The notes: generated by a model not told the origin, from the sequence alone. DNA of 64,000 nt from an uncultured Alphaproteobacteria bacterium (GCA_949082785.1 CARVLU010000005.1:2767-66766); one strand, 5' to 3'; shown: positions 14,371 through 47,622, counted from the first letter of the stretch. A program made the numbers and translations.

Positions 14371-15780
14371 TTACCAGGTCATGTTTTTATATGTTTTTTT
14401 GCCAACGGTGTCGCCGAACATGTCACGCTTTTTCTGGGTCAGTGTTTCAAACTGATCACTGGAAATAATGCGCAAGACATAGGCATCTTCGTCCCGCTGG
14501 GCCAATACAGGCATGATACGCTGTTCCGACACGCCGGTATCACGCAAAACCTGTTCCACGATGGCCAAACGACGCGCGGCCAGTTTGCGGTCATCCATAT
14601 CACGTGTCACGCGTTCGGGGATGGACACCTGAATCGCGCGTTTGGGATTGCTGACCACAATGGACGCGTATTCGGACAACAAATTGTAATTTTCCCGCGA
14701 CAGCGACGAATCATCCCCGCGGAATCTGATTTTGATTTCCAGCGGACGCACCCCGCCCGCCTCGGACAGGTCACGCTTGGCGGTGAACCCTTCGACGGTG
14801 CTGGTCAAATCGCTGGCGACATCGAAACGGTCGTCGATTTGGAATGTGGACAGATGCTTGTTTTCCGACAGATATGTTTTCTTGAACGCCTTTTTCAATT
14901 CGGACGGCGACATGCGCGACAAATCATCACGAACGGCGGCAACGCGCGGTTCTTCGGAATGCGTCACCTGGCGAACAACGACATCCTGTTGCATGGGAAC
15001 GACCATGCGGCTGATGGTGATGTCATCGCTGTCGTCTGCAATATCTGCAACCGCGGGCGTGGGTTCGGATTTTTTCGCCACCTGCGCCGCGGGACGCGCC
15101 GTAATGCGCGTGGGGGCCGCGGGAATGTCGGCGGCCGCGATACGTGGGGCGACCGGTGCGCGACGCACGCTTTCGTCCGCCTTTTTCTGTAATTCGACCA
15201 GTTTTGCAATTTCCGCGTCCAACGCGCCACTGCGCGCCGATGCCATGGCCGCTTCATCGGATTTTTTTGGTGCAACCGTCACCGCCGGGGTGGCGACGCG
15301 CGCGGCGGCAACCCTGACCGGTTTTTTATCCAGGCTTTCTTCTGGTAACGCGTCATCGGAACGGATGACGGAAAATTCCTGGGGCTGGGGCAGACGCAAC
15401 GGACTGTCCATTTTGGCCCATAAATCACCACTGGGGCGGCGCGGGGATAAAATATCACCCGGGGCATTGTTGGCCGCAATTTCCGCACCAGTGTCAATGG
15501 ATGTGGTATTGGTGGTTGCGACCGGCGTCACCTTGGCCGGTTGGGACGCACGGGCGACAACCGTCTTTTTCTTTTTTTCGGGCGCAGATGATTCGGATTT
15601 TTTATCCGCACGCGCCAAAGGGGCAACCGTCACAGCCGGCGTCGATTTTACCGGCACATCACCGAACGCCGCACGCGCAGAAACCGCGCCCGCCGCGATA
15701 TTGACCACCGGCAAACGTGCATCGGCCAACGCCGGCACGCACGCAAGCATCGATAAAACAGAAGCTGTGACCAGTCGCAT
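14371..15780 (-). CDS. Secreted protein with divergent OmpA/MotB-like C-terminal domain and PRRPSGDLW motif
   Basis: 469 aa. Signal peptide MRLVTASVLSMLACVPALA. Repeated TPAVTVAP. The C-terminus LEIKIRFRGDDSSLSRENYNLLSEYA...RKLAARRLAIVEQVLRDTGVSEQRI resembles OmpA_C. Confidence 0.7.
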   Translation of the reverse strand: MRLVTASVLSMLACVPALADARLPVVNIAAGAVSARAAFGDVPVKSTPAVTVAPLARADKKSESSAPEKKKKTVVARASQPAKVTPVATTNTTSIDTGAEIAANNAPGDILSPRRPSGDLWAKMDSPLRLPQPQEFSVIRSDDALPEESLDKKPVRVAAARVATPAVTVAPKKSDEAAMASARSGALDAEIAKLVELQKKADESVRRAPVAPRIAAADIPAAPTRITARPAAQVAKKSEPTPAVADIADDSDDITISRMVVPMQQDVVVRQVTHSEEPRVAAVRDDLSRMSPSELKKAFKKTYLSENKHLSTFQIDDRFDVASDLTSTVEGFTAKRDLSEAGGVRPLEIKIRFRGDDSSLSRENYNLLSEYASIVVSNPKRAIQVSIPERVTRDMDDRKLAARRLAIVEQVLRDTGVSEQRIMPVLAQRDEDAYVLRIISSDQFETLTQKKRDMFGDTVGKKTYKNMTW

Positions 15781-19587: not shown

Positions 19588-21627
19588 TTAAAATATTCCG
19601 CCCATAACGGCGCCCGGACCGGCACTGGCCTTGGTCGGGGCGGGATTGGGGGATTGGCCGGCTTTGAACGCTTCCAATATAATAGTGCCGTTGGGGTCAT
19701 CTTTGGCGGCGGCGCCACTGCGGCGGTTCACGCGCATAAACGTCAGACCGTCCGGCACCGCAAAGGGCTGATTGGTGGTCCCCGCCAACGCGGCGGTCAT
19801 AAATTCGGCAAAAATCCGCGCAGCCATGTGGCTGCCGGCGCCCCGCCCCAGCGGCCGCGGCGTGTCATACCCCAGATAAACGCCCGCAATCAAATCCTTG
19901 GAAAAACCGACGAACCAAACATCTTTGACATCGTTGGTGGTGCCCGTTTTACCGGCAATGGTGTGACCGGCCACGCGCGCCTGTTTCCCGGTGCCGCGTT
20001 CGACGGCGCCCTGTAAAATCGAAACCATCTGATACAAGCTTTGCGCGTCGGACAACGGTTCGGATGTCGCCCCGGCTGCCGGCGGCAACAAATCGTCACG
20101 CCATTCAATTAATTCGGTCGCCGGACCATCGATAACGCGGCCATATCTGTCTTCGACATAATCGACCAGTTTGGGTTCGATGGCGCGCCCCCCATTGATG
20201 AACGCCGCGTACCCCAGCACCAGCTTTTCCAATGTGGTTTCGCCCGACCCCAACGCCATGGATAAATTCACATTGTTCAAATCCGCGGGGTAAACGCCGA
20301 AACGTTGGGCAACCTCTATCGCGTCGCGGGCACCGATTTGTTCGACCAGACGGACACTGGGGACATTGCGCGACGTTTCCAACGACAGCCGCAACGGCAC
20401 ATCGCCCAAAAATTTCTTGTCATAATTTTCCGGTTTCCACATTGTGTTGTTTTCGCGCCAACCGACGATGGGCGTATCCTGCAAGATGGCCTGGGGGCTG
20501 ATGCCGCGTTCCAACGCCGCCAGATACACAAACGGTTTGATGGTTGACCCGATTTGACGCATGGCCTGGGTTGCGCGGTTAAACGAACTTTCCGCGAACG
20601 ACCGGCCGCCCGCCATGGCCAAAATGCGCCCGGTGTGCGGGTTCATGGCGATGATGGCGCCCTGTAACTTTTCACTGCGCCCCGTGTTATACGCGTCCAG
20701 CGCGCGGTTCAGCGCCGCCGACGCCGCCCGCTGATATTCGGGGACGATGGTTGTTTTGATATACAGCCCCCCGTTATACAATGTTTCGCGTCCAATCCGC
20801 CCCAGCAATTGACGGCGCACATCTTCGGCAAAGTATTGGAAATCCGCTTCCATCTGGGCGGTAAAACCGCTGTTGATATTTAATTCTTCGGCGGCGGCGG
20901 CGTCCGCTTCGGCGCGGGTGATGTATCCTTCGTCCACCATGCGGCGCAATACATAATTTCGGCGTTCAACCGCGCGGTCGCGGTTATTCGGTGCCTTTGG
21001 CAGGGATGCCAGAAACGCGCATTCGGCCAGTGTCAATTCTGACACCGGTTTGTTAAAATACATCAGCGCGGCCGACCCCACACCATACGCACGCGCCCCC
21101 AAAAAGATTTGGTTCAGATACAGCGTCATCAAATGCTGCTTGGAAAACGCGCGTTCCAGTTTCAGCGCCAAAATCGCTTCCTTTATCTTGCGCGATAATG
21201 TGCGTTCGGACGTTAAAAAGAAATTTTTCGCCACCTGTTGCGTGATGGTGGACGCACCGGAAAAACCGACATTAAACCCGACCAGACGGGCCGCATTTCC
21301 CATCGCGGCGCGGGTAATCCCCTGGACATCGATACCGGGGTGGGTCCAGAAATTCTGATCTTCGGCGGCGACAAAGGCATTGACCAATTGCGGCGGCATA
21401 TCGACAAAATCGATAAAAACACGGCGTTCTTCGGCGTATTCAATCAACAGCGACCCGTCCGACGCATACAAACGCGTGGCCACCGGCGGTGCGTACGTCG
21501 CCAGTTTTTTGTAATCCGGCAAATCATTGCCATAGATTAAAACCAACGCCGCCAGCGCAGCAATCCCGGCGGTAAAGCACCAGAAAACAATGTTCAATAA
21601 AATGCGTAAAAACTTTTTAAATTTCAT
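19588..21627 (-). CDS. mrcA: Bifunctional class A penicillin-binding protein (PBP1A type)
   Basis: 679 aa. Glycosyltransferase motifs EDQNFWTHPGID and TITQQVAKN. Transpeptidase motifs STIKP, SRN and KTGTTND. Confidence 0.93.
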   Translation of the reverse strand: MKFKKFLRILLNIVFWCFTAGIAALAALVLIYGNDLPDYKKLATYAPPVATRLYASDGSLLIEYAEERRVFIDFVDMPPQLVNAFVAAEDQNFWTHPGIDVQGITRAAMGNAARLVGFNVGFSGASTITQQVAKNFFLTSERTLSRKIKEAILALKLERAFSKQHLMTLYLNQIFLGARAYGVGSAALMYFNKPVSELTLAECAFLASLPKAPNNRDRAVERRNYVLRRMVDEGYITRAEADAAAAEELNINSGFTAQMEADFQYFAEDVRRQLLGRIGRETLYNGGLYIKTTIVPEYQRAASAALNRALDAYNTGRSEKLQGAIIAMNPHTGRILAMAGGRSFAESSFNRATQAMRQIGSTIKPFVYLAALERGISPQAILQDTPIVGWRENNTMWKPENYDKKFLGDVPLRLSLETSRNVPSVRLVEQIGARDAIEVAQRFGVYPADLNNVNLSMALGSGETTLEKLVLGYAAFINGGRAIEPKLVDYVEDRYGRVIDGPATELIEWRDDLLPPAAGATSEPLSDAQSLYQMVSILQGAVERGTGKQARVAGHTIAGKTGTTNDVKDVWFVGFSKDLIAGVYLGYDTPRPLGRGAGSHMAARIFAEFMTAALAGTTNQPFAVPDGLTFMRVNRRSGAAAKDDPNGTIILEAFKAGQSPNPAPTKASAGPGAVMGGIF

Positions 21628-21675
21628 GTTCCATAGTATGGGATAAATATTTCATGAACGCAAGCGGGCGCTGAC

Positions 21676-22962
21676 TTATTTTTTGCGGATGATTTTCCAC
21701 CATTTCTGGGCGGTGGCGGACGACTTGGCCCACAGACCCGCGATATCTTTGCCGACCTGTCCGCCGAAACTGTCGTTGATGCTGCCGCCTATATCTTTGG
21801 CGAATTGTCCCGCCTTGGTCGCCAGATAGGCAACCAACACCCCAACCAACAGTGTCACAAAAAATCCGTCGTTTTCCAGACCCGGCACCGCCGCCGCCAA
21901 ATTGGAATCAATCACCCCCGACAGCAATGCCGCGCACAGCGCCACCACCGCCGCCAACGACACAAAGAAAATGGCCGCGTTGATAAATCGCTGAATCTGT
22001 TTATCCAGACTTTCCGCATTAAACAGGGATAAAAAACCGTTAAAGATGTCGCCAGCAATCCCCTTATACGTGGTTTTGCCAATCGTTTCCGCAATCGCGG
22101 TAAAGGGCAACAACAACACCGCCAGGAACAAATCCGCAATCACCCCCAGCGCCATCAGCGCGAATTTCCAAATGTTATAGATAAACAACACGACAAACGT
22201 AATGCCGACCGCAAACGTGAATGCGCTGTGCCCAATCCCGGCCAGCATCCATTTCCACCCGGCCGCCACCGCGGTATAGAAAAATCCCGACAGCCGCGTC
22301 GGCACACACAGCAAATCGGCCGCACTGCCCGCATCCATCAGCATGTTTGTCGGCGCGTTGGTCGCGACATAATTATGTATCGCGGCGCATGTATCGGGCA
22401 ACGCGGCGCCCGCCGCCCCCGACACCGCATTTAAAATCAAATCCGACAGATGTGTCCCGACACTGACAACCGGTCCCATAATCCACATAAACAACTGGGC
22501 GGGGCCCTGTTCCAGAATTAAAATCCAGATGGAAATCAACACACCCTTTTTCAATATATCCGACCACAGCTTTTGAACATTTTGGCCGTCGCGCATCATC
22601 TGGTACGCTTCGAACATGACCCAGAACGCGTACGCCACAATCAAAAATATCACCACAAACCGCACCAGTGAATTTTCCAAAACATCCCCAATCAGCGACA
22701 TCGCCCCCATAAAGGCCAGGCCGACCTTGGCTTCGACCGGAACATAGTTTTTGACCAAAACGTTTTGCTGGAAACTATCCTGGAACTGGGTCATGTCGCG
22801 CGTAATGTCGGTCGTGAACAATTCCAAATTATGCGCCGTGGTCCATGCGCCAAAATCCCCCACATCCCCGGCGGGCAAATTGGCGGCTGCGCCATGCGCC
22901 GCGCCACCCATCATGATGCACAGGCACAGCACCGATAAAAATTTCCGTATCCATGCGCGCAT
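21676..22962 (-). CDS. Polytopic membrane protein M1 (paralog family M1-M5; possibly TrbL/VirB6-like)
   Basis: 428 aa. Signal peptide, at least 6 hydrophobic spans, loop Cys pair (PDTCAAIH...LLCVPT), LLLPFTAIAE helix, C-terminus ...WWKIIRKK. The start overlaps the M2 stop (TAATG). Confidence 0.8.
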   Translation of the reverse strand: MRAWIRKFLSVLCLCIMMGGAAHGAAANLPAGDVGDFGAWTTAHNLELFTTDITRDMTQFQDSFQQNVLVKNYVPVEAKVGLAFMGAMSLIGDVLENSLVRFVVIFLIVAYAFWVMFEAYQMMRDGQNVQKLWSDILKKGVLISIWILILEQGPAQLFMWIMGPVVSVGTHLSDLILNAVSGAAGAALPDTCAAIHNYVATNAPTNMLMDAGSAADLLCVPTRLSGFFYTAVAAGWKWMLAGIGHSAFTFAVGITFVVLFIYNIWKFALMALGVIADLFLAVLLLPFTAIAETIGKTTYKGIAGDIFNGFLSLFNAESLDKQIQRFINAAIFFVSLAAVVALCAALLSGVIDSNLAAAVPGLENDGFFVTLLVGVLVAYLATKAGQFAKDIGGSINDSFGGQVGKDIAGLWAKSSATAQKWWKIIRKK

Positions 22963-24395
22963 TATTTTTTACCCCCCGCGGCGTTGGCGATTTTTTCAAA
23001 CAACATTTTCGGCGCATCCCACATACGCTGCCCCAGTTGCTTCATCCAACCGCCGAAATCAAATTTTTCCGCCCCGTCTTTGCCCAGCAATCCGTCGATT
23101 TTGGGATTAATGACATAGTAATACAGGAAAAACAGCCCGAACATCACCATCAAAAATTCCCATCCGTTGCCCATGAAATCAAATGCGCCCGGATACCGGC
23201 GTTCGACGGCTGCTCGGCTCGCGGTGAAACAATTCCGGAATTTATCCGCATCCATCTGGCCGTCGGTCAATCCCACCTGTTCGCACGTTTTGAAAACGTT
23301 AATCACCGACAGCGTCTGCGCATCCGGGTTTTCGGCGCGCGCCCCCATCAGCGGCGGCATAACCGCACTGTACCCGTCAACCGGCCCGGGGAACGTTGCA
23401 TCCGCCGCATAAGATATCGTGGCGTATAAAATCAAAACCTTTAACGTGATGGCGACAATACGCACCGCCGATTTGACCAGCATGTTTATCGCGCCGCGCA
23501 CAACACCGTCGGCGACGGCCCACACGCCTTCGAATGCGGCGGCCGCCAGAAACAGCGGCAAGAATATAATGATAAACACCAGTTTGAATACAACCGACAA
23601 CACCTGGAAAAACAAATCAAACCCGATAATCAGGAACAATATCACCAACGCCAATCCCGCCATCCATGTGAACGCGCCGCCCCCCATCCCCAGCCATGCG
23701 TAATTCATCATGGAAAATCCGCCGGACGCGCCCGCCAGCATCACCGAATTCAAATTCCCCATCACGCACATAAAAGGTTTCAGCACCGGGTTCAACACAT
23801 CGTCGGTTGTAATCGGCGCGCCGCAATGGGCACTGTCGTTGACGCCGGACGCGGCCATCGCCAATTCTGCCCCCACCAGCATCACCGGCGTCACCGTGAT
23901 ATTGGTCACCGTGCGCAATGCGGTCGTCCCGCCCATCCCCAGCGCCCCCAGCATCACGCCCACAATCATAATACGGGCGCCGGTGCGCCAAACCCGGTCA
24001 AACCAGGGTTGAAATTCCAGCTTTTTTTCCTTGTCATCCAACGTGGTTGTTTTGGACGCCGCGTCATACAGATATTTGGCCGTATGGATAAACAGAAAAA
24101 TCCCAAACCCAATCGCCATCACAATCCACAGATGGTCCACCATCACCGTCCAGAACTTTTCCGCGGACAAACCGATGGCGGCAAACAATTGCTGAATATA
24201 TCCGCACAGAAAGCATCCGTTGGCGTCACCAATATCGCCGCCGCCCGCCCCGATGGCGTTTAAAAATCCGGACACGCTGGTGTACGTCAAACTGGCCCCA
24301 CTGATGGATGACGACAGATACCATATCCCCACCCCCAGCGCAATGGCGCCCATAATCACACGCACGGCAATCATAATCAGTTTTGCTTTCAGCAT
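22962..24395 (-). CDS. Polytopic membrane protein M2 (paralog family M1-M5)
   Basis: 477 aa. Contains NGCFLCGYIQQLF, loop Cys pair (SAHCGAP...PFMCVMG) and IIFLPLFLAAAAFEG. C-terminus ...AAGGKK. The start abuts the M3 stop (TAAATG). Confidence 0.8.
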   Translation of the reverse strand: MLKAKLIMIAVRVIMGAIALGVGIWYLSSSISGASLTYTSVSGFLNAIGAGGGDIGDANGCFLCGYIQQLFAAIGLSAEKFWTVMVDHLWIVMAIGFGIFLFIHTAKYLYDAASKTTTLDDKEKKLEFQPWFDRVWRTGARIMIVGVMLGALGMGGTTALRTVTNITVTPVMLVGAELAMAASGVNDSAHCGAPITTDDVLNPVLKPFMCVMGNLNSVMLAGASGGFSMMNYAWLGMGGGAFTWMAGLALVILFLIIGFDLFFQVLSVVFKLVFIIIFLPLFLAAAAFEGVWAVADGVVRGAINMLVKSAVRIVAITLKVLILYATISYAADATFPGPVDGYSAVMPPLMGARAENPDAQTLSVINVFKTCEQVGLTDGQMDADKFRNCFTASRAAVERRYPGAFDFMGNGWEFLMVMFGLFFLYYYVINPKIDGLLGKDGAEKFDFGGWMKQLGQRMWDAPKMLFEKIANAAGGKK

Positions 24396-25598
24396 TTATT
24401 TCTTGTCCGTTTTGCCCGCGGCCGCCCCGTCGCCACCGTTGATAATGGTCTGGCCCACCTTTTTGGCGGTATCGACCACAACCTTGGTCAATTTTTCGGC
24501 ATCGGTCGCCAATTGTTCGCTTAACTGGTTTTCGGTGCCGACATCGAACGTATCCAGCACCATCTTGGTCACCTGGCCGCCAAGTCCCGTGATAAAATTC
24601 ACAACATAGACCAACACCACACACCCCATCAGCGTCAGTGCCGCCAGATTTTCATCCGACAAATCGGCCGCAAACACATCCCCATTTGTAATCAGGTGCA
24701 TTAATTGGGCGCCGTCCCCACCACTGGCGGTAAAAAATTTGGCAATAATGACCATCACAACCGTGTACGTCAGCACCCCAGACGCCAGCGCAACAATTGA
24801 TTTAATCACCCGTTTAAACTGGCCGACACCAACCGTTTTCCCCAGATTTTTCATCCACGACGGCGCGTCCCCCCCACGGAACACAAACATCACCAGTGAC
24901 AACGGAAAGAAAAACGCAAAGAACGTCATCGCCACAATAATATCCGCGAAATAGAAACAGAACCGCACGAACAACCGGAAAAAGCCATAAACCAGATACA
25001 GCCCCATAAAAAATATGATGATGTGTTTCAGCAATGCCCCCACCCCCAGCATGGCGCGCCATGTGAACGCACTGTCCATGACGGCGATGCCCAGTTTGAT
25101 ATAGGCCTGGAACTGGGTAATGGTTGTTTTCATCAGCATGATGATGGCATCGCGCAACTGGGGGCGATAAAATCCGGTATCCGACATCGGCATCGGCTGG
25201 TATGTGACGCGTTCTTCGATTGTGGCGGCGTCCATTTGCACAACGCTTTGCGTATATGTCAGGGCGATTTGCGCCACCGGTTCGAACGTCAGTGTTGTCA
25301 CAAACCGCGGCAACATCACGCCCATCCCCAGAAACGTTAACGCAAACAGTGAACTGATTATCGCGGGTTGCACAGATTTCTTGTACCAGGGGTCGGGGAC
25401 ATTATCCTTGATATTCTTCCACACGGCGTTCAAGACATAGAATGCAAACAGCACACAGAACAAAATCATGCAAAAGAACGCGAATTGTCCATATACCGCG
25501 CCGGCCGCCATCGACACCACCTGGAACAGGCGGTCAAACACCGGGCAGCCCCAACACTGCACCGCATTGTTTATCAAAGGATTCACAATCCCATTCAT
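24396..25598 (-). CDS. Polytopic membrane protein M3 (paralog family M1-M5)
   Basis: 400 aa. Contains VQCWGCPVFDRLF, LTFEPVAQIAL and FFFPLSLVMFVF. C-terminus ...GKTDKK. ATGA overlap with the M4 stop. Confidence 0.8.
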   Translation of the reverse strand: MNGIVNPLINNAVQCWGCPVFDRLFQVVSMAAGAVYGQFAFFCMILFCVLFAFYVLNAVWKNIKDNVPDPWYKKSVQPAIISSLFALTFLGMGVMLPRFVTTLTFEPVAQIALTYTQSVVQMDAATIEERVTYQPMPMSDTGFYRPQLRDAIIMLMKTTITQFQAYIKLGIAVMDSAFTWRAMLGVGALLKHIIIFFMGLYLVYGFFRLFVRFCFYFADIIVAMTFFAFFFPLSLVMFVFRGGDAPSWMKNLGKTVGVGQFKRVIKSIVALASGVLTYTVVMVIIAKFFTASGGDGAQLMHLITNGDVFAADLSDENLAALTLMGCVVLVYVVNFITGLGGQVTKMVLDTFDVGTENQLSEQLATDAEKLTKVVVDTAKKVGQTIINGGDGAAAGKTDKK

Positions 25599-26902
25599 TT
25601 CTTTTTAATCCACCCGGCGGCCCGGCCGATTTTTTTGCCCCAGTCGTTTGCGCCGCGCCACACGGACTTGGAATCACGGGTCACCTGGTTATACAGGCCA
25701 TCCATCCCGGACGCGTATTTCTTTAACTGGGCGCGTGTGCGTTCAAAAATTTGAATCATCAGATAAAAAGTCAGTATCGCCGACAGCCACAAAATCGAAT
25801 GCTGGCCAAATCCCATGGACGAATTGGCAATCTGGGGCACATTGGACATGGCGGCGCCACCGGCCGCGACATTGAACACCGACGTATTCCATTGGAACAG
25901 TGCGCGAATAATCGCGATATTGATGCACAGAATAAACGCGCACGCAATCATGGTGATGACCAATTGTTGCAATGCCTTTATAATACCGGAAAACACGGGC
26001 CAGATGTCGAACCATTTGCTGGCATCTTTGGGTTTTACCACCCAGACCAAGACCTGGAACGGGTACAAAATCAACGCCATACCGAAATTAAAGATGCCCT
26101 GGATAATCAGCAACGCCATAAATAAATTGCACCCGACAAAGGTCGATATCAGCAAGATGCCCGTGATTAAATTCAGAAAATCTTCGCCCCCATGCGGTAT
26201 CAGCGATAATAACCCGCGCAGCCCCCGGTTCACGAAATCAAATCCGCGCTTAATCACCTGATTATTTGCATGGGACAAATCCGACACCGGCTGGACCAGG
26301 AATGCGCAGCTTTCCGCGCTGATCCACCCCTGGACAACAACGTCGGGCGGGCATTCGATGCGCGGCGCCGCACTGCCCGGGACCGACACGGCATCACTGA
26401 TTTGTTCGGTATATATCGCCCCCAGTTGCAGGAACGGGTTCACCACCCATTCGGTGACATAGACCGGCTTAATCTGCAACAAAACCGTTGCGGCGATAAT
26501 GGCACGCAATGCGGGTTTGAACATATTTTCGGCAATGGTGGTGCCACTGGCCTTGCCATCCCACATTTCGCCGCCGCCCGAAAACCCGAAAAATGCCAAC
26601 CAATCCTTTGGGAAAAACATCTTGACCAGATACAGCCCCATGGTCAATCCCAAAAATCCCCAGATTAAAACATAGATAATCCCGCCGCCGCGCCCGACAA
26701 AGAAATCATACGCCCCCGTCGCCACCGCCATCAGCGCATCCAGCACCAGCGGCACAAACGGCGCCAGGTTCAGCGCGTCCACAATCCCACCCATCGCATG
26801 GGCCGGACCACACCACAGCGCCACCCCCGCCGCGACACAGGTCGCGCGGCCAATATAACGACAAAGCCGCGATACAAACAGACTCATTCCCCCAAATTTC
26901 AC
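25595..26902 (-). CDS. Polytopic membrane protein M4 (paralog family M1-M5)
   Basis: 435 aa. GTG start at 26902 or ATG at 26887. Signal-like N-terminus ...WCGPAHA. Contains VVNPFLQLGAI and loop Cys pair (RIECPP...AESCAF). C-terminus ...AAGWIKKK. Confidence 0.8.
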   Translation of the reverse strand: MKFGGMSLFVSRLCRYIGRATCVAAGVALWCGPAHAMGGIVDALNLAPFVPLVLDALMAVATGAYDFFVGRGGGIIYVLIWGFLGLTMGLYLVKMFFPKDWLAFFGFSGGGEMWDGKASGTTIAENMFKPALRAIIAATVLLQIKPVYVTEWVVNPFLQLGAIYTEQISDAVSVPGSAAPRIECPPDVVVQGWISAESCAFLVQPVSDLSHANNQVIKRGFDFVNRGLRGLLSLIPHGGEDFLNLITGILLISTFVGCNLFMALLIIQGIFNFGMALILYPFQVLVWVVKPKDASKWFDIWPVFSGIIKALQQLVITMIACAFILCINIAIIRALFQWNTSVFNVAAGGAAMSNVPQIANSSMGFGQHSILWLSAILTFYLMIQIFERTRAQLKKYASGMDGLYNQVTRDSKSVWRGANDWGKKIGRAAGWIKKK

Positions 26903-26952
26903 TTAATTGATTTCAATTATATCACATTTGGGACAAAATATGATATAGTTAA

Positions 26953-28248
26953 ATGGCAATGTGGCGCTTTAAAAAATTTTGGATTGTATTTTTATCCTTT
27001 CTGCCGTTTGGTGCGGGGGCGGTGGCGCCGTTTGTCGTGGGTGGTATTGCGGGTCTGGGGGTGATTGCGGGATTTTCCATTTATCGCACCGCCGCACCAG
27101 TCAACATGGCCGACGCGATGAATTTCTTTTCCACATGTTGGACGTGCCAGATGTTTTCCGACATTATGGCGACAATGTCGAATTTACTGCCGCGGGCGTA
27201 TCACGCCATCGGCACCGTGATAATTCCGTTTGCGGCGGTGTTGACCGCGATTTGGTTTGCCTGGCAATTGGTGTCGGGATATATGAATGCGCGCGTCGAT
27301 GACCCCTGGACCATCAGCAGTAATTTCGGCAAACACCTGATAAAGCTGACGTTTGTCATATCTTTGCTGGCGTTCCCGTTGCCGCGCCTGATAACAACGG
27401 TCGCCATTGAACCCATTTTTAATATCGGATTATCGCTGAACCGGATTGTGGCGGGCGACGACAAATTTGCCGAATGCGTTGTTGCAACCGCCATCGCCGA
27501 CCCGGTATCAATCGACAGTGAATCTGCCGCACGCGGCGCGTTTTCACCACGTCTGCGTCATAATTTGGCGTGCGAATTGGCCAACGTTCATCAAATGACG
27601 GGTCTGGGGATGACGGTGGGCTGGACAATGCTGAACATGGCGTTCAACGAAAAATACATGCACAAGATTATGTGGGACGTGCCGATTTTCCCAAATATAC
27701 CGGTGTTCTTTGCGGGGTTGCTGATTTTGGTGCTGTTCTTTTTTGCATTGCTGCCGGTGCCGCTGTATTTCTTGGACGTCTTTATCACATTGTCGATGGA
27801 TTTAATCATGTTGCCGCTGTTTCTGCTGGGCTGGCTGTTCAAGGGATGGTCGATTATCCCCGGCGGCGGCGGCAAATCGATTCAGGCGATTATTAACGAC
27901 GTCGTCAAATCGACGGTCGGGATTGCGATGGTGGGCGTCTTTATCACGTTTACGGTGATGTTCCTGAATTCTGTTTTTGGCAATTGGGATGGTGCATCCG
28001 CATTGGCTGCGGCGATGGCGTCGGGCGATTCGACAATTTTGATGGACGGCCTGATGATGCGCAACGACAGTTTGATTACAATTGTGCTGATGGGGCTGTT
28101 TATTGCGATGTTTATGTCAATGATTCCGGCCCTGGTCCAGACTTTGTTTAACATTGAAATATCCCAGACAACGTATGAAAAAACGAAAAAGAACCTGGAT
28201 ATCATGTGGCAAAACATCAAAAAATGGTACGCCGCGATAAAAAAATAA
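26953..28248 (+). CDS. Polytopic membrane protein M5 (paralog family M1-M5), divergent from M4
   Basis: 431 aa. Contains STCWTCQMFSDIM, VAIEPIFNIGL, loop Cys pair (FAECVV...LACELA) and IMLPLFLLGWLFKGW. C-terminus ...WYAAIKK. Only 50 bp separates it from the M4 start. Confidence 0.8.
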   Translation: MAMWRFKKFWIVFLSFLPFGAGAVAPFVVGGIAGLGVIAGFSIYRTAAPVNMADAMNFFSTCWTCQMFSDIMATMSNLLPRAYHAIGTVIIPFAAVLTAIWFAWQLVSGYMNARVDDPWTISSNFGKHLIKLTFVISLLAFPLPRLITTVAIEPIFNIGLSLNRIVAGDDKFAECVVATAIADPVSIDSESAARGAFSPRLRHNLACELANVHQMTGLGMTVGWTMLNMAFNEKYMHKIMWDVPIFPNIPVFFAGLLILVLFFFALLPVPLYFLDVFITLSMDLIMLPLFLLGWLFKGWSIIPGGGGKSIQAIINDVVKSTVGIAMVGVFITFTVMFLNSVFGNWDGASALAAAMASGDSTILMDGLMMRNDSLITIVLMGLFIAMFMSMIPALVQTLFNIEISQTTYEKTKKNLDIMWQNIKKWYAAIKK

Positions 28249-28316
28249 AAAATCAAGCGCTTTATTTAACACCCCCCACTTTTTTGTGCATTTGGTTTCT
28301 GATATAATTCACATTG

Positions 28317-28826
28317 ATGAAAACGTTTCCGATTCTTTATTGGCCCCGCCGGACAAAGGATGACGCCGATTATCAATTGGCGCGCAAAACCATTAATAAT
28401 GCGACGGGATTAATGCCGGAAATTATCACGGATGATTTGGATTTGGGGTCGCTGTTTGCGGCCAACCCGGATGCAACGGTTTATTTTCCGGTTTTTTGTG
28501 AATCGACCGGATGGTGGGGCGAATTGCTGGGGGCGGGCGCGGTTGTGACGGACAAAATGATAATATCGTCCGAATGCCAATTAATGGTAATACGCCACGA
28601 AGATCGGGCGCGTTCCCGCGGTGGGACCCAGTTGTTGGCGGCGGAAATCTATCCGGCCAGCGGATTTTTCAAGAAAATGAATTCCGGGATTGCGACGGTT
28701 GCCGACATGTTGGCGACGGATGCCGGGACGATATTGGCACTGTTTTCGGGCCGGAACCAGTCACAGTTTATCAACGTACTGGAATCGACGGGGAATTCAT
28801 ATTTGGGCTGTATTGGCCGGTATTAA
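28317..28826 (+). CDS. Hypothetical protein (169 aa)
   Basis: ORF-track frame 28314-28826, first ATG at 28317. An extended -10 (TGaTATAAT at 28300-28308) sits only about 8 nt upstream, so the mRNA may be leaderless. No recognised motif. Confidence 0.55.
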   Translation: MKTFPILYWPRRTKDDADYQLARKTINNATGLMPEIITDDLDLGSLFAANPDATVYFPVFCESTGWWGELLGAGAVVTDKMIISSECQLMVIRHEDRARSRGGTQLLAAEIYPASGFFKKMNSGIATVADMLATDAGTILALFSGRNQSQFINVLESTGNSYLGCIGRY

Positions 28827-28861
28827 ACAAATTGGGACGCGCGGCGGCCCTTTAATAATGC

Positions 28862-28889
28862 TTGATTTCCTGAAAATTAAGGGTATAAT
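28862..28889 (+). promoter_or_regulatory. rpmE promoter TTGATT-16 nt-TATAAT
   Basis: cTTGATTtcctgaaaattaagggTATAATtcgcggg, about 30 nt upstream of the rpmE ATG. Confidence 0.55.
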
Positions 28890-28920
28890 TCGCGGGCTAA
28901 AAAAATAAAAAGGGTAAGTT

Positions 28921-29133
28921 ATGAAACAAGGAATTCATCCCGAATATCATGAAATTAACGTCACCATGACGGATGGCAAGACTGTAAAAATGTATTCTTC
29001 GGTCAAAAAAGACCTGGTTTTGTCCACGGACAACCTGAATCATTCTGCCTGGACCGGTCAACGCAGCAATACCGGGGACAAGGGTCAGCGCGCAGCGGAA
29101 TTCAAATCCAAATTTGCCGGCTTTAATTTCTAA
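28921..29133 (+). CDS. rpmE: 50S ribosomal protein L31 (Cys-less type)
   Basis: 70 aa. MKQGIHPEYHEINVTMTDGKTV...HSAWTG matches alphaproteobacterial L31. Confidence 0.92.
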   Translation: MKQGIHPEYHEINVTMTDGKTVKMYSSVKKDLVLSTDNLNHSAWTGQRSNTGDKGQRAAEFKSKFAGFNF

Positions 29134-29163
29134 ATATCATCGGTCGGACGGGGGGATACGCAC

Positions 29164-29871
29164 ATGGATTTGTTGATCAAGGGTTCGTCGGAATTAAACA
29201 AAATGTTTGCGGCATTGCAACGGACTGCGTCCGGTTTGCGCCGCGATTTTGGCGAAGTGGAAAATTTACAACAATCCCTGCGCGGTGCCCGCGACTTCGT
29301 GGCCAAGGCCGCCAACCGCATCGAAGAAAGTATTTTAAACGACCTGTTGCTGGTGCGTCCGGCGGCGGGTTTGTTGACGCCGAACGTATCGCGTGACGGT
29401 GATGGCCGTGACGAATTTGTGCTGGCACTGTCGGGGGCGCCGAATTTTGTCCGCGCCAATCCGCACTTTGCAATTTCATTGGCACTGCGTTCGAACGACG
29501 AAACAAAAATCGCATTGATTTATTCACCGATTGACGAACGTCTGTATTACGCGGAACGCGGTGCGGGCGCATACGCATTTTCTGCATTTCATTCGGCAAA
29601 AATCCGTGTATCGAATTTGTCGAACCCGGCCGATTTGACGGTTGCATTTAATACCGCATCCCCGCGCCCGGGTATCATGGGCAACATCCGCATGACGGGA
29701 TGCCCGGCATTGGATTTGGCATGGGTTGCGGCGGGCCGTTTGGATGCATATGTATCTGACCCGTTGGATTATGCCGAAATCGCCGCCGGCGAACTGATTC
29801 TGGCCGAAGCGGGGGGTACCCTGGAAATGGGCGCCGATTTAATCGCCACCAATGGCCGGGTTGAATTATAA
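29164..29871 (+). CDS. Inositol monophosphatase/SuhB-fold protein with degenerate active site
   Basis: 235 aa. Aligns by eye to E. coli SuhB (PHFAISLAL, GCPALDLAWVAAGRLDAY, AAGELILAEAGG). However, WVIDPLDGTTNF is replaced by FVLALSGAPNF and ITEE by LTPN. Confidence 0.7.
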   Translation: MDLLIKGSSELNKMFAALQRTASGLRRDFGEVENLQQSLRGARDFVAKAANRIEESILNDLLLVRPAAGLLTPNVSRDGDGRDEFVLALSGAPNFVRANPHFAISLALRSNDETKIALIYSPIDERLYYAERGAGAYAFSAFHSAKIRVSNLSNPADLTVAFNTASPRPGIMGNIRMTGCPALDLAWVAAGRLDAYVSDPLDYAEIAAGELILAEAGGTLEMGADLIATNGRVEL

Positions 29872-29900
29872 AAATCCCCCCGTATGGGGGATTTTTTTTA
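29871..29900. terminator. Bidirectional terminator AAAAATCCCCC-CGTAT-GGGGGATTTTTTTT
   Basis: Starts within the suhB-like stop codon. Confidence 0.85.
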
Positions 29901-29906
29901 TCCCCG

Positions 29907-29945
29907 TTGTCATTGCGAGCAAGCGTAGCGCGCGCGGCAATCCAG
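29907..29945. repeat. Single R element
   Basis: ttgtcattgcgagcaagcgtagcgcgcgcggcaatccag, between two terminators. Confidence 0.9.
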
Positions 29946-30429: not shown

Positions 30430-30463
30430 GGGATTTAAATTTATTGGTGTGTGGGTTAATTTA

Positions 30464-30947
30464 CTGGATTGCCACGCGGCGGCGTACCGCCTTGCTCGCA
30501 ATGACAAGGGGGATGCAGTTCCTGGAAATTAGACACCGTTGTCATTGCGAGTGCAGTGACGCAATCCAGTGAATAGTGGTCTGTTCCTTATTATCTGGAT
30601 TGCCGCGCGCGCTACGCTTGCTCGCAATGACAAAGGAGATGCAGTGCCAAGCAATTCAACACCGTTGTCATTGCGAGTGTAACGAAGCAATCCAGTGAAT
30701 AGTGGTCTGTTCCTTATTATCTGGATTGCCACGCGCGCTACGCTTGCTCGCAATGACAAAGGGGATGCAGTTCCTGGAAATCAAACACTGTTGTCATTGC
30801 GAGTGTAACGAAGCAATCCAGTGAATGGTGGTCTGTTCCTTATTATCTGGATTGCCACGCGCGCTACGCTTACTCGCAATGACAAAGGAGATACAGTTCC
30901 TGGAAATTAAACACCGTTGTCATTGCGAGTGTAACGAAGCAATCCAG
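30464..30947. repeat. Array 2: 3.8 units (131/126/126 bp) of R1-S1-R2-S2
   Basis: CTGGATTGCC at 30464, 30595, 30721 and 30847. S1 is in the opposite orientation to array 1 (gggggatgcagttcctggaaattagacaccg), and an alternative S1 occurs (aggagatgcagtgccaagcaattcaacaccg). Confidence 0.95.
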
Positions 30948-30986
30948 TCGGTTATGCCGCGCGGATGCGCGTACCACCCACCCCCA

Positions 30987-31015
30987 TAAAAAATCCCCCA
31001 TTCGGGGGGATTTTA
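30987..31015. terminator. Bidirectional terminator AAAAAATCCCCC-ATTC-GGGGGGATTTT; overlaps the stop of the 31013 gene
   Basis: The hairpin and its 41-nt upstream flank (TCGGTTATGCCGCGCGGATGCGCGTACCACCCACCCCCAT) are repeated at 38472-38538. Confidence 0.8.
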
Positions 31016-31660
31016 TTTATTCGGGATGATTTTGATTTCCACGCGACGGTTCTGCTGGCGCCCGGCGGCGGTCGCATTCGACGCAATCGGATTCGACGGT
31101 CCCATGCCCATGATTTCAAACCGGGTGGATTTTACCCCCTGGCCCTGTAAATAGGCGGCCACGGCCGTCGCGCGTTGCTTTGACAATGTCATGTTATACG
31201 CGTCCGACCCCGTATTATCGGTAAAGCCCATAACCATCACGGTCGAATTGCTGTATTTATTCAAAACCTTGGCCACGGAATTCAGTGTCGCATAAAATCC
31301 AGCATTGATGTCTGCGGAATCTGTTTTAAATGTGATGTTGCCCGGCATAATTAAACGAATGCTGTCATCGGTGCGTTCAACGCTGACCCCGGTTGATGCC
31401 AGTTCCGCGCGCAGTTCGGCTTCTTGGACATCCAGATAGTATCCAACGCCGCCGCCAACCGCCGCCCCGGCCAGGCCACCCACAATGGCACCGGTGCCGC
31501 TTTTCTTGGCAACCAATGCGCCCGTCGCCGCACCGGTGGCCGCACCGATGGCGGTGCCCCAGACAGCCTTGGACGTTTGGGATTGGCCGGTATAAGGATT
31601 GGTTGTGGTGCACGCCGCCAACAATCCGGTCAGCGCACATAATGTGACAAATTTTTTCAT
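31013..31660 (-). CDS. OmpA-family lipoprotein with glycine-zipper segment
   Basis: Start moved to ATG 31660. Lipobox LLAACTT. Contains GTAIGAATGAATGALVA...GGLAGAAVGGGVGYY. OmpA_C motifs GFTDNTGSDAYNMTLSKQRATAVAAYL and NRRVEIKI. Confidence 0.88.
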   Translation of the reverse strand: MKKFVTLCALTGLLAACTTTNPYTGQSQTSKAVWGTAIGAATGAATGALVAKKSGTGAIVGGLAGAAVGGGVGYYLDVQEAELRAELASTGVSVERTDDSIRLIMPGNITFKTDSADINAGFYATLNSVAKVLNKYSNSTVMVMGFTDNTGSDAYNMTLSKQRATAVAAYLQGQGVKSTRFEIMGMGPSNPIASNATAAGRQQNRRVEIKIIPNK

Positions 31661-31730: not shown

Positions 31731-31786
31731 CAAAAAATAAATCGCCATAAATGGCGATTAAATCTTTGGTGGGTGTTGAGGGACTC
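31731..31786 (-). repeat. 56-nt duplicate of the tRNA-Val 3' end plus its terminator (att-like direct repeat)
   Basis: caaaaaataaatcgccataaatggcgattaaatctttggtgggtgttgagggactc is identical at 31731-31786 and 31898-31953. Confidence 0.9.
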
Positions 31787-31898
31787 CCTGGCGCGGGGCG
31801 CGGCGGGGCATTCGTTCCCGTCCGCGTTGCGGACTGCGCGCGCCCCAATGGCGCGCTGACTCATAGTCAAACCCCGGGTTTTCGTCCCCAACCCATAC

Positions 31899-31929
31899 AA
31901 AAAATAAATCGCCATAAATGGCGATTAAA
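31899..31929 (-). terminator. tRNA-Val terminator (AAATCGCCAT-TT-ATGGCGATTT + TTTTTT)
   Basis: Hairpin plus T-run on the minus strand, 4 nt after the CCA end. Confidence 0.75.
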
Positions 31930-31933
31930 TCTT

Positions 31934-32010
31934 TGGTGGGTGTTGAGGGACTCAAACCCCCGACCCTCTCGGTGTAAACGAGATGCTCTAATCAACTGAG
32001 CTAAACACCC
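31934..32010 (-). tRNA. tRNA-Val(UAC), CCA encoded
   Basis: Reverse complement is GGGTGTTTAGCTCAGTTGATTAGAGCATCTCGTTTACACCGAGAGGGTCGGGGGTTTGAGTCCCTCAACACCCACCA. Cloverleaf arms pair. The anticodon loop is TTTACAC. Confidence 0.92.
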
Positions 32011-38511: not shown

Positions 38512-38538
38512 AAAAAATCCCCCGTGCGGGGGGATTTT
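38512..38538. terminator. Bidirectional terminator AAAAAATCCCCC-GTGC-GGGGGGATTTT; overlaps the stop of the 38537 gene
   Basis: Same sequence family and upstream flank as 30987-31015. Confidence 0.8.
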
Positions 38539-40813
38539 ACGTGTTATTTTTTTTGACGCATTTGCCGGAACTTTCTTCTGTGCCAACCGGGCATTGCGCG
38601 TAACATTGGTTGTTATACGGTTTGTACCCTTCGAAACACTGACAATGGTCGTTGACGTATCTGTTGACGCCGGCCGTCCCGGATGTCTGGGTGTAATTCG
38701 AATTATCGGGGCACAGCAACGACTGATAAAACATTTTGGAAATGCTTTCGATACATTGCTTTTCGCCATCCGCGCCATCGGTACAGGATTGCGGATCCTT
38801 TTCAAAAACGGCGTACGAACACGTCAGTGCGACATTCCGGCATGCACCGGTCATCACCTTGTAAATACTGTCAACACTGGCCACATTCGACCATGCGTTT
38901 ACCTGGGTTACCTGTTGGTTATAACATGTGGCGATTTCGGTCATACATGTGGACGCGTAATCGGAAATAATCTTGCGCTGGGCGGCCTGGATATTGACCA
39001 TGGCACGCTGGATATAATTCACGACAACATCGTTGTACGGCTGATAAGAATCGTTTTTGTATGTGTATTGCTGACACTTGTCCAACACCGCACGGCACAG
39101 CCCGTTGTCGGTCACCTTTTGACCGGTGCCGATTTTATCCATCAAATAACGCGCGATACATGCACCGTCGTTGCCGGTGCCCTTTTTGTCGGGGTTGGGC
39201 GCGGCCTTGCACATGTTGGTTGTTATCTGTTGCGACATGGCGTTACTTAAATATACACTGTCGATATTGGCATTGCTGTAATTGGTGGCATCCATAAACT
39301 GCTTGATATGCGTGATATTCTGCCCCAGAACGACATTGCCATTTTCGTCGATATATTTCTTGGTCGGGTCCAAACATTTCGTGTAATCTTCGCCGCAAAC
39401 CATTTCGTCGGTCATGCACGTGTTCAGCGCGGAAATACATCCCTTGGCATCGTATTGATTTTTATTTTGCAGAACGGCCAGTCGCGCCTTTTGCAGCATT
39501 AAATTCGCACTGCGCACATTGGATTTCAATGTGTCGTTCATTTTCGACAGACCCTGTTCGTATGCCAGGCAATCCTTGTCAATGGCCAAATCGTAATTGG
39601 CGGTAATTTGTTGGGATGTGGCGCCGACATCCTTGCACTGTTTCAAAATCGTGTTACAGCGCTTTTTGGCCGCGTTGTACAAATCGGCCCCGCGCATATT
39701 GGACAAACTGGATGAATTGTTACTTAAAAAATCCAGGCTGAACAAATCGCTGGAATCGGACGAAAAATCCAAATCCAGGTCCAATCCAGAAAAACTGTCG
39801 CCGGATGAATACGACGCGGAACTGGTCGGATCCTTAATCATGTCTTCGATTTGTTGCAACATGTTGCGGGATTCGGTCGTATCGCGTTTCCCCGACAGGG
39901 CTTCTTCGGCCTCGGTCGCGGACATAATGGCGCGGATTTCATCGGCCGACAAACCGATGTAACGGATACGCTGGGCAACTTCGTTCAATTGGGTGTTGGC
40001 GTCTTTGACGGCCGATTCCACCTTGGTATAACGCGACAAATTCGATGAACAGCTGCACCGTTTTTGATTGGCATCGATAACCGCACAGAACTGGTCCATG
40101 CAATCGTTGTATTGTTCCTGGCACGATTTGTTTAATTCCGCCGTCTGTTCCAGGCGTTCTTTGGCATCTGCAATGGTTTCACGGGTGGTGACTGTCGTGG
40201 CGGCGCGGGTTTGGACGGCGCGCACTTCGTTGCCAATATTCGACCCGGTTTGAACGCCGGTGCCGGCAATGGTGGCCCGGCCCCCAACTTCGGCCGTGCT
40301 GGGGCGCAGGGTGACGCCCGCGCGACGAACGGCGGCGGTGTTGTTAATGCTGGCCGCGCTGACGCGGGCATTACGACCAACCGTATTCACGGCGGCATCC
40401 AAATTATCACGGGCGGACGTCGCACCCGCCGGCGCGGCGGCGCGCGAATACGCGCCCGATTGACGCGCGGTCGCCCCATCACGGGTTGTGGGCGTGACAT
40501 CGGGCGTTGTCGAAACGGTGCGTGAAATGGTGGCCGAACGGGACGGTGTCACGTCCGACGCCGCCGCGCGCGCGGTAACGCCATCGGACGCGTCCATTGT
40601 TGTGGCGGCGGGTGCGGACGGGGTTGTTGCGACATCCCGCTTAATCGGGGTGCGGGTTGCAACCGCCGTGCGGGCCACGGTGGCGTCGGTATTGGCGGCG
40701 TTTGTATTTTGCGAATTTGATGTCGGCAGACTGCGCGACGGCGTCACGGCGGCGGCAAATTCACCGGACGCGCATAATGTCATTAAGAATAAACAGGTTG
40801 CAACCTTCTTCAT
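38537..40813 (-). CDS. Large secreted Cys-rich protein (758 aa), unknown family
   Basis: Signal peptide MKKVATCLFLMTLCASGEFAAA. Ala/Thr/Ser/Arg-rich N-terminal third. Then repeated C-x6/7-C-x4/5-C motifs (SCQEQYNDCMDQFC, GCISALNTCMTDEMVCGEDYTKC). C-terminus HCQCFEGYKPYNNQCYAQCPVGTEESSGKC. Confidence 0.8.
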   Translation of the reverse strand: MKKVATCLFLMTLCASGEFAAAVTPSRSLPTSNSQNTNAANTDATVARTAVATRTPIKRDVATTPSAPAATTMDASDGVTARAAASDVTPSRSATISRTVSTTPDVTPTTRDGATARQSGAYSRAAAPAGATSARDNLDAAVNTVGRNARVSAASINNTAAVRRAGVTLRPSTAEVGGRATIAGTGVQTGSNIGNEVRAVQTRAATTVTTRETIADAKERLEQTAELNKSCQEQYNDCMDQFCAVIDANQKRCSCSSNLSRYTKVESAVKDANTQLNEVAQRIRYIGLSADEIRAIMSATEAEEALSGKRDTTESRNMLQQIEDMIKDPTSSASYSSGDSFSGLDLDLDFSSDSSDLFSLDFLSNNSSSLSNMRGADLYNAAKKRCNTILKQCKDVGATSQQITANYDLAIDKDCLAYEQGLSKMNDTLKSNVRSANLMLQKARLAVLQNKNQYDAKGCISALNTCMTDEMVCGEDYTKCLDPTKKYIDENGNVVLGQNITHIKQFMDATNYSNANIDSVYLSNAMSQQITTNMCKAAPNPDKKGTGNDGACIARYLMDKIGTGQKVTDNGLCRAVLDKCQQYTYKNDSYQPYNDVVVNYIQRAMVNIQAAQRKIISDYASTCMTEIATCYNQQVTQVNAWSNVASVDSIYKVMTGACRNVALTCSYAVFEKDPQSCTDGADGEKQCIESISKMFYQSLLCPDNSNYTQTSGTAGVNRYVNDHCQCFEGYKPYNNQCYAQCPVGTEESSGKCVKKNNT

Positions 40814-44216: not shown

Positions 44217-44289
44217 CCGACTCACTCCGTTATTAATTACTTTATTATAACACAAGCCAGCCGGATGACCAAGGAAAATATATAGATTT

Positions 44290-45755: not shown

Positions 45756-45764
45756 CCCCCCGCT

Positions 45765-46274: not shown

Positions 46275-46293
46275 GATTGCTTTATACCATATA

Positions 46294-47616: not shown

Positions 47617-47622
47617 TGTGTA

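Follow-up and report, generated by a model that had tools for sequence, protein, structure and literature searches.

Divergent VirB6/TrbL-like proteins encoded by a five-gene array of Candidatus Enterousia: probable components of a dispersed type IV secretion system

Introduction

In R388's type IV secretion system (T4SS), VirB6 is a pentamer that sits at the stalk base, where it touches VirB3, and it has been proposed to be the platform on which pilin is assembled (PMC9259494). The rvh T4SS of the Rickettsiales has tandem, divergent RvhB6 paralogs, five in Rickettsia and four in Anaplasmataceae and Wolbachia, the role of which has been called a mystery (PMC8035066; 2025 Wolbachia preprint). 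Here we analyze five tandem genes, M1 to M5, found in a 64,000-nucleotide stretch of DNA (GCA_949082785.1, CARVLU010000005.1:2767-66766; hereafter the window) from an uncultured alphaproteobacterium of the Candidatus Enterousia lineage. The membrane proteins that they encode very probably constitute a deeply divergent subfamily of the VirB6/TrbL superfamily, a placement that draws on fold, transitive, and weak direct profile evidence. We favor, at a probability of about 0.6, the reading that M1 to M5 are VirB6 components, probably forming a heteropentameric platform, of a domesticated and dispersed rvh-like T4SS that has VirD4 as its substrate receptor.

According to the Enterousia genome paper (PMC12306168), GTDB places Enterousia in the order Rs-D84, members of which are widespread in human and animal guts; the Enterousia genome is <1 Mb and lacks respiration and the standard importers of sugars, amino acids, or peptides; a partner-dependent life is predicted for these bacteria, and no machinery of interaction has been described for them. 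One closed chromosome, a metagenome-assembled genome (MAG), is present among the M5-bearing relatives and has a length of 958,618 bp.

Relationship of M1 to M5 to VirB6 and TrbL

Each of the five M proteins has six to eight strongly hydrophobic 19-residue windows on the Kyte-Doolittle scale, as expected of polytopic membrane proteins (taken as at least four to six hydrophobic helices). All five end in Lys-Lys, and the CxxC motif is present only in M2, M3, and M5. In an alignment of 54 family sequences (M5 numbering) W119, P154, G223, G255, F262, and P288 are invariant, and conservation of C62, C65, C175, and C207 is 90% or higher. Pairwise identity among M1 to M5 is 19–25%, and the pairs recovered by BLAST and phmmer were M3-M5 (E 1e-11 to 1e-15), M2-M5 (2e-8), and, at about 3e-3, M1-M4 and M1-M2. 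When profiles built from about 80 orthologs of each protein were compared by hhalign, full-length collinear alignments were obtained with probabilities of 96% (M3-M5), 95% (M1-M4), 91% (M1-M5), 82% (M1-M2), 72% (M4-M5), and 64% (M2-M5). The relationship is thus weak when single sequences are compared, but the profiles show M1 to M5 to be distant paralogs of one another, beyond chance. An earlier account of the window made from its sequence alone (the sequence-only reading) had singled out the Lys-Lys ends, the six or more hydrophobic spans, and the CxxC of M2, M3, and M5 as family features; these are all present, and the profile comparison bears out the paralogy that it had proposed.

The same reading had likened the proteins to VirB6 and TrbL, a likeness now backed by a fold search, by transitive TrbL matches, and by a weak but specific profile match. 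Among PDB sequences nothing relevant was found with M5 (phmmer) or with the family profile. A first AlphaFold2 model of M5, made from a 54-sequence alignment, was mediocre, with a predicted local distance difference test score (pLDDT) of 64.6; TrwI/VirB6 chains of the R388 T4SS stalk filled the top five places when it was compared with the PDB. A second, confident model, made from a 98-sequence alignment, reached a pLDDT of 85.2 and a predicted template-modeling score of 0.79 and is all-helical with long hydrophobic helices. When this second model was searched with Foldseek against 350,542 PDB chains, TrwI/VirB6 occupied ranks 2 to 6 (probability 0.92–1.00), with target-normalized template-modeling (TM) scores of 0.48–0.50 over about 340 aligned columns and a root-mean-square deviation (rmsd) of 8.6–9.4 Å. 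TrwI/VirB6 was the sole PDB fold above TM 0.3. That the target chains are TrwI was confirmed by Agrobacterium AvhB6, which matches that PDB sequence at 6e-30. The rank-1 match, PNS1 (9f63), was discarded as spurious (TM 0.14, rmsd 26 Å).

An exhaustive search with the family hidden Markov model (HMM) recovered 1,205 clusters (50% identity) at E ≤ 1e-3, and 469 at E ≤ 1e-10. Seventeen of 77 distant family representatives matched the TrbL family PF04610 at E < 0.01, most of them below its gathering score of 25.9 bits. The relative P0370 exceeded that score (34.5 bits), and its match at residues 349–447 lies inside the 284–521 segment aligned by the M profile. Five other relatives showed the same overlap of TrbL and M-profile matches, at HMM positions of about 74–203. 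An HMM built from the Enterousia M5 orthologs alone found P0370 at 55 bits. In NCBIfam, TrbL_P and a T4SS protein family were also matched weakly.

For a direct comparison, the M family was aligned by hhalign with four Agrobacterium-type VirB6 proteins taken from complete virB operons. The match was weak but specific (27–36% probability, E 4–7e-4, about 48 residues), whereas the polytopic controls MraY and FtsW gave 0.1–0.2%. The aligned region is the conserved Pro-containing helix, M5 residues of about 276–326 being paired with VirB6 residues of about 174–221; in family members this stretch of the M profile lies beneath TrbL HMM positions of about 74–203.

Conservation of the locus in Enterousia

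The five open reading frames (ORFs), their strands, the translational coupling of M4-M3-M2-M1 on the minus strand, and the divergent orientation of M5 are as the sequence-only reading had them (Table 1). In the window M4 and M3 share 4 nt, M3 and M2 abut, and M2 and M1 share 1 nt. Such junctions of -4, -1, and 0 nt are kept in most of about 78 other species, and the 4-nt M4/M3 overlap is kept in 47 of 79. The promoters of both M4 and M5 presumably lie within the spacer that separates these two genes; a promoter-like site is present there (26921–26949, plus strand), although the promoter scan performed no better than background. No further M-family paralog was found across the 64-kb window.

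When one genome per GTDB species was scanned, M5 relatives were detected in 229 species; the best 80 carry the label Candidatus Enterousia or uncultured Alphaproteobacteria, apart from a few given as 'uncultured Rickettsiales'. Unannotated homologs at 65–92% identity run into the hundreds for both M5 and M2 (734 for M2, none of them annotated). The order M1-M2-M3-M4 (minus strand) followed by M5-P170-(L31)-IMPase (plus strand) is identical in 80 loci wherever the contig suffices. Median identity to the window proteins is 58–70% for M1 to M5 (58% for M1, with orthologs in 75 species) versus 68.5% for FtsW, 68% for UvrD, and 67% for ComF in the same loci. These values show that the five paralogs, in a fixed order in about 80 species, are under housekeeping-level constraint.

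P170 follows M5 in 79–81 loci, with a median identity of 76%. The M5-P170 spacer is unusually constant for intergenic DNA: in 71 of 81 Enterousia species it measures exactly 68 nt, and in the window it is 65 nt (28249–28313). P170 had no match in Pfam, NCBIfam, or the PDB sequences and is unrelated to M1 to M5; it was not found beside the out-group arrays described below. It is a candidate accessory protein, or merely the product of a co-transcribed housekeeping gene.

In the usual Enterousia layout uvrD adjoins M1, and mrcA-mliC-mraY-ftsW-murG lies on the opposite side, downstream of IMPase. Relative to this layout, the majority one among loci L003 to L082, the M1-IMPase segment of the window (21627–29871) is inverted, and ompA-ybaB-pnp lies between IMPase and uvrD. 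A terminator-like site was sought in the 48-nt gap from M1 to mrcA in the window and none was found. The sequence-only reading had the M operon continuing into mrcA, but this is not a conserved property because the M1-mrcA adjacency is an inversion present in a minority of Enterousia species. Co-transcription with mrcA as a conserved feature was therefore rejected, since uvrD rather than mrcA abuts M1 in most species.

VirD4 and the search for other secretion genes

The search for the rest of a T4SS covered about 30–80 kb of DNA per genome (1.87 Mb of fetched loci in total). In the 64-kb window no T4SS ATPase or VirB gene was found among all sizeable ORFs, the unannotated ones being examined at relaxed Pfam and NCBIfam thresholds. 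None of the unannotated window ORFs has a Walker A motif, and comparison of the window ORFs by phmmer and hhalign with VirB1 to VirB11 and VirD4 from four reference operons gave nothing. The four kinds of scan (HMM, Walker A, phmmer, and hhalign) thus agree with the sequence-only reading that the window encodes no T4SS ATPase. The operon setting typical of VirB6, with virB4/B5 upstream and virB7/B8 downstream, was not seen in the window or within 10 kb on either side of >80 orthologous loci.

A phmmer search over the ORFs of the fetched loci found a VirD4 ORF of about 750 aa in three Enterousia species, where it lies within 2–7 kb of the M block (Table 1); it is absent from the window. These are unambiguously VirD4/TraG coupling proteins, matching PF02534 at 178–184 bits as well as TraG-D_C and TrwB_AAD_bind. 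Their homologs form >120 clusters at 70–92% identity, several of which are annotated as T4SS coupling protein or VirD4 by NCBI or JGI, and one homolog shares a 201,727-bp contig with an M5 ortholog. In every genome inspected VirD4 is solitary: it is divergent from rsmE-rluA and a tetratricopeptide repeat gene, its surroundings are housekeeping genes, and no virB8-B11 lies beside it. In Enterousia, then, strong constraint acts on at least one T4SS ATPase, and the T4SS genes are scattered singly.

The sequence-only reading had proposed that the array could be an orphan VirB6 module. That no other T4SS gene was found at the locus agrees with the proposal, but the orphan status has become doubtful, indeed unlikely, because a conserved VirD4 coupling ATPase, and hence some portion of a T4SS, is encoded elsewhere in Enterousia genomes. 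The same reading had set a complete canonical T4SS encoded elsewhere, and hence rvh-like biology, against its proposal; the VirD4 found elsewhere, as one part of such a system, shifts the case in that direction.

Related arrays in other Alphaproteobacteria

The out-group relatives are unannotated 'hypothetical' proteins from other uncultured Alphaproteobacteria. Their genes also form tandem arrays: five of the seven lineages (L084, L087, L088, L091, and L092) have five family members each, L085 has four, and in L090 three were detected. The members are 405–1292 aa long and resemble 'extended VirB6' proteins (cf. PMC12857230). The proteins at position 4 of L087, L088, L091, and L092 are mutual best hits (96–189 bits) and correspond to M2, the M2 HMM scoring those of L088 and L091 at 118 and 68 bits, respectively. 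Position 1 of L088 corresponds to M5 (108 bits with the M5 HMM) and position 3 to M3 (65 bits with the M3 HMM). The matches fit an ancestral order M5-M4-M3-M2-M1, which is the Enterousia transcription order with M5 inverted. Because positions are partly conserved across lineages, the five-fold duplication must be old, and every copy has been kept.

A protein of 57–91 aa with two transmembrane segments, mostly with a Lys/Glu-rich tail, is encoded directly upstream of the array in five loci and inside it in L084 (Table 1). The out-group accessory proteins, both these small proteins and soluble proteins of 438–921 aa, showed no VirB2, VirB3, or VirB4 character, no P-loop, and no homologs in the window. 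L088 and L091 share a divergent operon that encodes a large soluble protein, proteins of about 350, 185, and 147 aa, and a ribbon-helix-helix protein, with an AsmA gene adjoining; neither the proteins of this operon nor the small proteins belong to a recognizable family or have a homolog in the Enterousia window.

The array member P0364/P0398 (L085:10001-13879, 1292 aa) has an N-terminal Peptidase_M23 domain and a VgrG3-like C-terminal domain; P0384 is a further case. An M23 fusion of this kind would build a VirB1-like wall-cutting function into a VirB6 paralog. In the window, an unannotated protein of 469 aa with a weak OmpA/Pal-like C-terminus is encoded after murG (14371–15780, minus strand), and it is homologous (E 2e-23) to the product of L087:17448-18929, the gene directly downstream of the five-gene array.

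Table 1 Coordinates of the M locus in the window and of associated genes in other loci
Feature	Coordinates	Strand	Remarks
M1, VirB6-like, 428 aa	21676-22962	-	ORF; last gene of the M4-M3-M2-M1 operon; most divergent member, without CxxC; 7 hydrophobic spans
M2, VirB6-like, 477 aa	22962-24395	-	ORF; C-terminal half carries a Cys-rich insertion of ~45 aa; counterpart of out-group array position 4
M3, VirB6-like, 400 aa	24396-25598	-	ORF; nearest paralog M5; corresponds to L088 array position 3
M4, VirB6-like, 435 aa	25595-26902	-	First of the four operon genes; starts with GTG; N-terminus resembles a signal peptide
M4-M5 divergent intergenic region, 50 bp	26903-26952	.	38-73 bp in other species
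M5, VirB6-like, 431 aa	26953-28248	+	Best conserved and most consensus-like; corresponds to L088 array position 1
P170, soluble, 170 aa	28314-28826	+	Directly 3' of M5; conserved
VirD4/TraG coupling protein	L075:12960-15209, L058:17355-19598, L044:3999-6260	-	Also L096-L099:10001-12274
Small genes encoding two transmembrane segments	L088:9768-10004, L087:6361-6621, L091:6061-6327, L092:7780-8055, L085:2669-2842, L084:13964-14185		

Other features of the window

A tandem array with a period of 126 nt (three to four copies, 90–92% identical) lies at 30459–30948, in the stretch without ORFs between IMPase and ompA. Its conserved 23-nt core (...ACACCGTTGTCATTGCGAG) occurs also at 29897–29919. Elements consisting of a G/C-rich hairpin and a T-run are located at 29870–29901 and 30989–31020. 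A perfect 56-nt direct repeat is present at 31731–31786 and 31898–31953 (167 nt apart), the second copy of which overlaps the 3' end of tRNA-Val(tac) at 31934–32010 on the minus strand; from its sequence and position this repeat looks like an att-type duplication or an integration scar.

An unannotated run of genes at 45264–50176 (minus strand) encodes proteins of 163, 169, 440, 406, and 451 aa, all of which have a single hydrophobic segment at the N-terminus; the 169-aa protein has a Zn-ribbon. Further unknown proteins are encoded on the minus strand at 41133–44255 (1040 aa) and 38537–40813 (758 aa). The 440-aa protein has a weakly GspK pseudopilin-like N-terminus (E 0.022), and the 1040-aa protein weakly matches T4SS_pilin (E 0.098). 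Comparison by hhalign gave no VirB-like signal for the run or for the 1040- and 758-aa proteins. A complete 16S rRNA gene lies at 129–1630 on the minus strand (Rfam SSU_rRNA_bacteria, 1528 bits).

Discussion

In the reading that we favor, M1 to M5 would be made in near-equal amounts and would assemble as a 1:1:1:1:1 heteropentamer that replaces the VirB6 homopentamer of conjugative systems. We infer a heteropentamer because there are five paralogs, because their genes are translationally coupled, and because every copy has been retained. Within a T4SS whose genes are dispersed, this heteropentamer would act as inner-membrane platform or translocon, and VirD4 would bring it substrates that are exported to a host or partner cell or exchanged with it, in keeping with the partner- or host-dependent life of Enterousia. 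The conserved Cys pairs may stabilize a periplasmic helical domain.

Several observations weigh against this reading. The case for the heteropentamer comes entirely from the number five and from the gene organization, and positional orthology between the Enterousia and out-group arrays is clear for three of the five positions, positions 2 and 5 being too divergent to assign. Searches of M1 to M5 against Pfam and NCBIfam gave only noise, and neither PF04610 nor any VirB6 model was matched even at E ≤ 10. The family HMMs miss, by sequence, both TrwI and the VirB6 of A. tumefaciens (sought among the ORFs of the Ti vir region), and in absolute terms the Foldseek match of M5 to TrwI is borderline, with an E-value of about 0.03 and a TM of about 0.5, which is at the threshold. 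A tblastn search of 72,556 plasmids gave no match for M5 or for the TrbL-positive relative P0370. VirB2 to VirB5 and VirB8 to VirB11 were found neither in the window, nor within 10 kb on either side of >80 Enterousia and seven out-group loci, nor beside VirD4, and, unlike in rvh, no locus has virB3-virB4 before the array. The absence of VirB4 and VirB8 to VirB11 from whole genomes is not thereby demonstrated, since just about 30–80 kb of each was inspected. Lastly, the Enterousia genome paper (PMC12306168) mentions no secretion system.

The missing PF04610 match, the failure of the family HMMs to detect TrwI or A. tumefaciens VirB6, and the Foldseek values fit a different identity for M1 to M5, namely an unrelated family of helical membrane proteins, for example transporters or channels, that would resemble VirB6 by convergence or merely through their hydrophobic composition. 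The rmsd of about 9 Å in the M5-TrwI superposition and the sub-threshold scores of most of the 17 TrbL matches point the same way. We nevertheless consider this improbable. TrwI/VirB6 was the sole fold above TM 0.3, a result reproduced with two independent models; the TrbL matches always fall within a single HMM region (about 74–203) and a single part of the M profile; the polytopic controls scored far below the VirB6 alignment (0.1–0.2% versus 27–36%); and tandem arrays of about five genes with a co-conserved VirD4 suit VirB6 biology. A transporter or a GT-C glycosyltransferase, the unrelated families that the sequence-only reading had itself named, did not emerge: both gave only sub-threshold noise in Pfam and NCBIfam, and the Foldseek transporter matches all had TM ≤ 0.2 and rmsd >25 Å.

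VirB6 and VirD4 are typical conjugation genes, and a 56-nt direct repeat overlaps the nearby tRNA-Val gene, so the M block could be viewed as carried by, or left over from, an integrated conjugative element or plasmid. We find this barely credible, as the block keeps its place among housekeeping genes in about 80 species and its divergence tracks theirs, and scans of the window ORFs found no relaxase, integrase, or other transfer gene. The fixed chromosomal position, a GC content like that of the surroundings, and the lack of any plasmid match led us to reject such an origin.

The missing VirB genes bear on another possibility, that of a VirB4-less orphan or minimal module in which a self-standing channel in the inner membrane, or an envelope complex, would be built from the five VirB6-like proteins, VirD4 included or not, and would function in the absence of a canonical T4SS. 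Such a module might serve metabolite or macromolecule exchange with a partner cell, or envelope biogenesis. The Enterousia genome paper (PMC12306168) agrees with it in that it reports standard nutrient transporters to be lacking and describes no secretion system. In its favor also are the lack of VirB4, VirB11, and VirB8 to VirB10 in about 90 loci and beside VirD4, the seven out-group arrays flanked solely by unknown proteins without P-loops, the fusion of some out-group members to M23 peptidoglycan endopeptidase domains, and the location of the M block near mrcA-mraY-ftsW-murG in most species. Despite these points we regard the module as doubtful: a VirD4 kept at 70–92% identity in a genome of <1 Mb implies a working T4SS, and a functional T4SS that lacks VirB4 is not known (cf. 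PMC12857230). Moreover, the T4SS genes of the Rickettsiales are widely scattered (PMC8035066), as those of Enterousia would be in the reading that we favor.

It seems rather unlikely that Enterousia and related gut Alphaproteobacteria with reduced genomes have no VirB4 and no VirB7 to VirB10 at all and run a minimal machine in which a heteropentameric VirB6 ring is fed by a lone VirD4 and passes macromolecules or metabolites to or from the partner. If it were true, with no VirB4 or VirB8 to VirB10 genome-wide, this would amount to a new type of machine, derived from the T4SS but lacking the superfamily's defining ATPase.

The VirB6 identity of M1 to M5 and of the 1,205 unannotated clusters points to a T4SS-like apparatus as the interaction machinery of these gut bacteria, and VirD4 supports this. 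Multi-VirB6 arrays, already known from the Rickettsiales, would thereby be extended to gut Rs-D84. What is new is a divergence so extreme that Pfam and NCBIfam overlook >1,200 clusters, the separation from virB3 and virB4, the solitary VirD4, and the recurrent five-gene array with its partly conserved order, which would tie paralog number to the VirB6 pentamer. Why four or five VirB6 paralogs are kept, and whether they form a hetero-oligomeric ring, become directly testable questions. Since the Pfam and NCBIfam models miss a whole subfamily, the T4SS content of gut MAGs is likely to be under-called.

Comparison with known systems

The best structural match to M5, R388 TrwI/VirB6 (7O3V, 8RT9, and 8RTD), is likewise polytopic with long hydrophobic helices, and its pentamer stoichiometry equals the five M paralogs per array. 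In contrast to M1 to M5, R388 VirB6 is a homopentamer encoded by a single-copy gene that lies between virB5 and virB7/8 in a complete operon. It is also shorter (about 300–340 aa versus 400–477 aa) and has no detectable direct sequence similarity to the M proteins, which add an N-terminal transmembrane segment, the CxxC motif, and the Cys-pair loops.

Extended VirB6 proteins and the minimal T4SSs of Gram-positive bacteria and mycoplasmas offer parallels in their extra VirB6 domains and in having few components, VirD4 and VirB6 among them. The minimal systems differ in that they always have VirB4, are usually carried by integrated conjugative elements, and have a single VirB6.

The comparison with rvh (RvhB6a-e, or VirB6-1 to VirB6-4) is the one that the sequence-only reading had drawn, and it is apt. 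The Enterousia array differs in having no virB3-virB4 upstream, in the compact size of its proteins, which escape PF04610, and in the inversion of M5. VirD4 is alone, outside any virB8-B11-D4 operon, and VirB4 and VirB8 to VirB11 were not found within the 30–80 kb inspected per genome. The host also differs, being an extracellular-looking gut lineage (Rs-D84) rather than one of the known intracellular Rickettsiales. Both systems, however, have four or five divergent tandem VirB6 paralogs on the chromosome of an alphaproteobacterium with a reduced genome, both have T4SS genes (in Enterousia the array and the lone VirD4) that are dispersed rather than gathered in one operon, and both include extended forms, here the proteins of 570–1292 aa in the out-group arrays. 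In rvh as in Enterousia all of the paralogs have been retained, which argues that they are not redundant.

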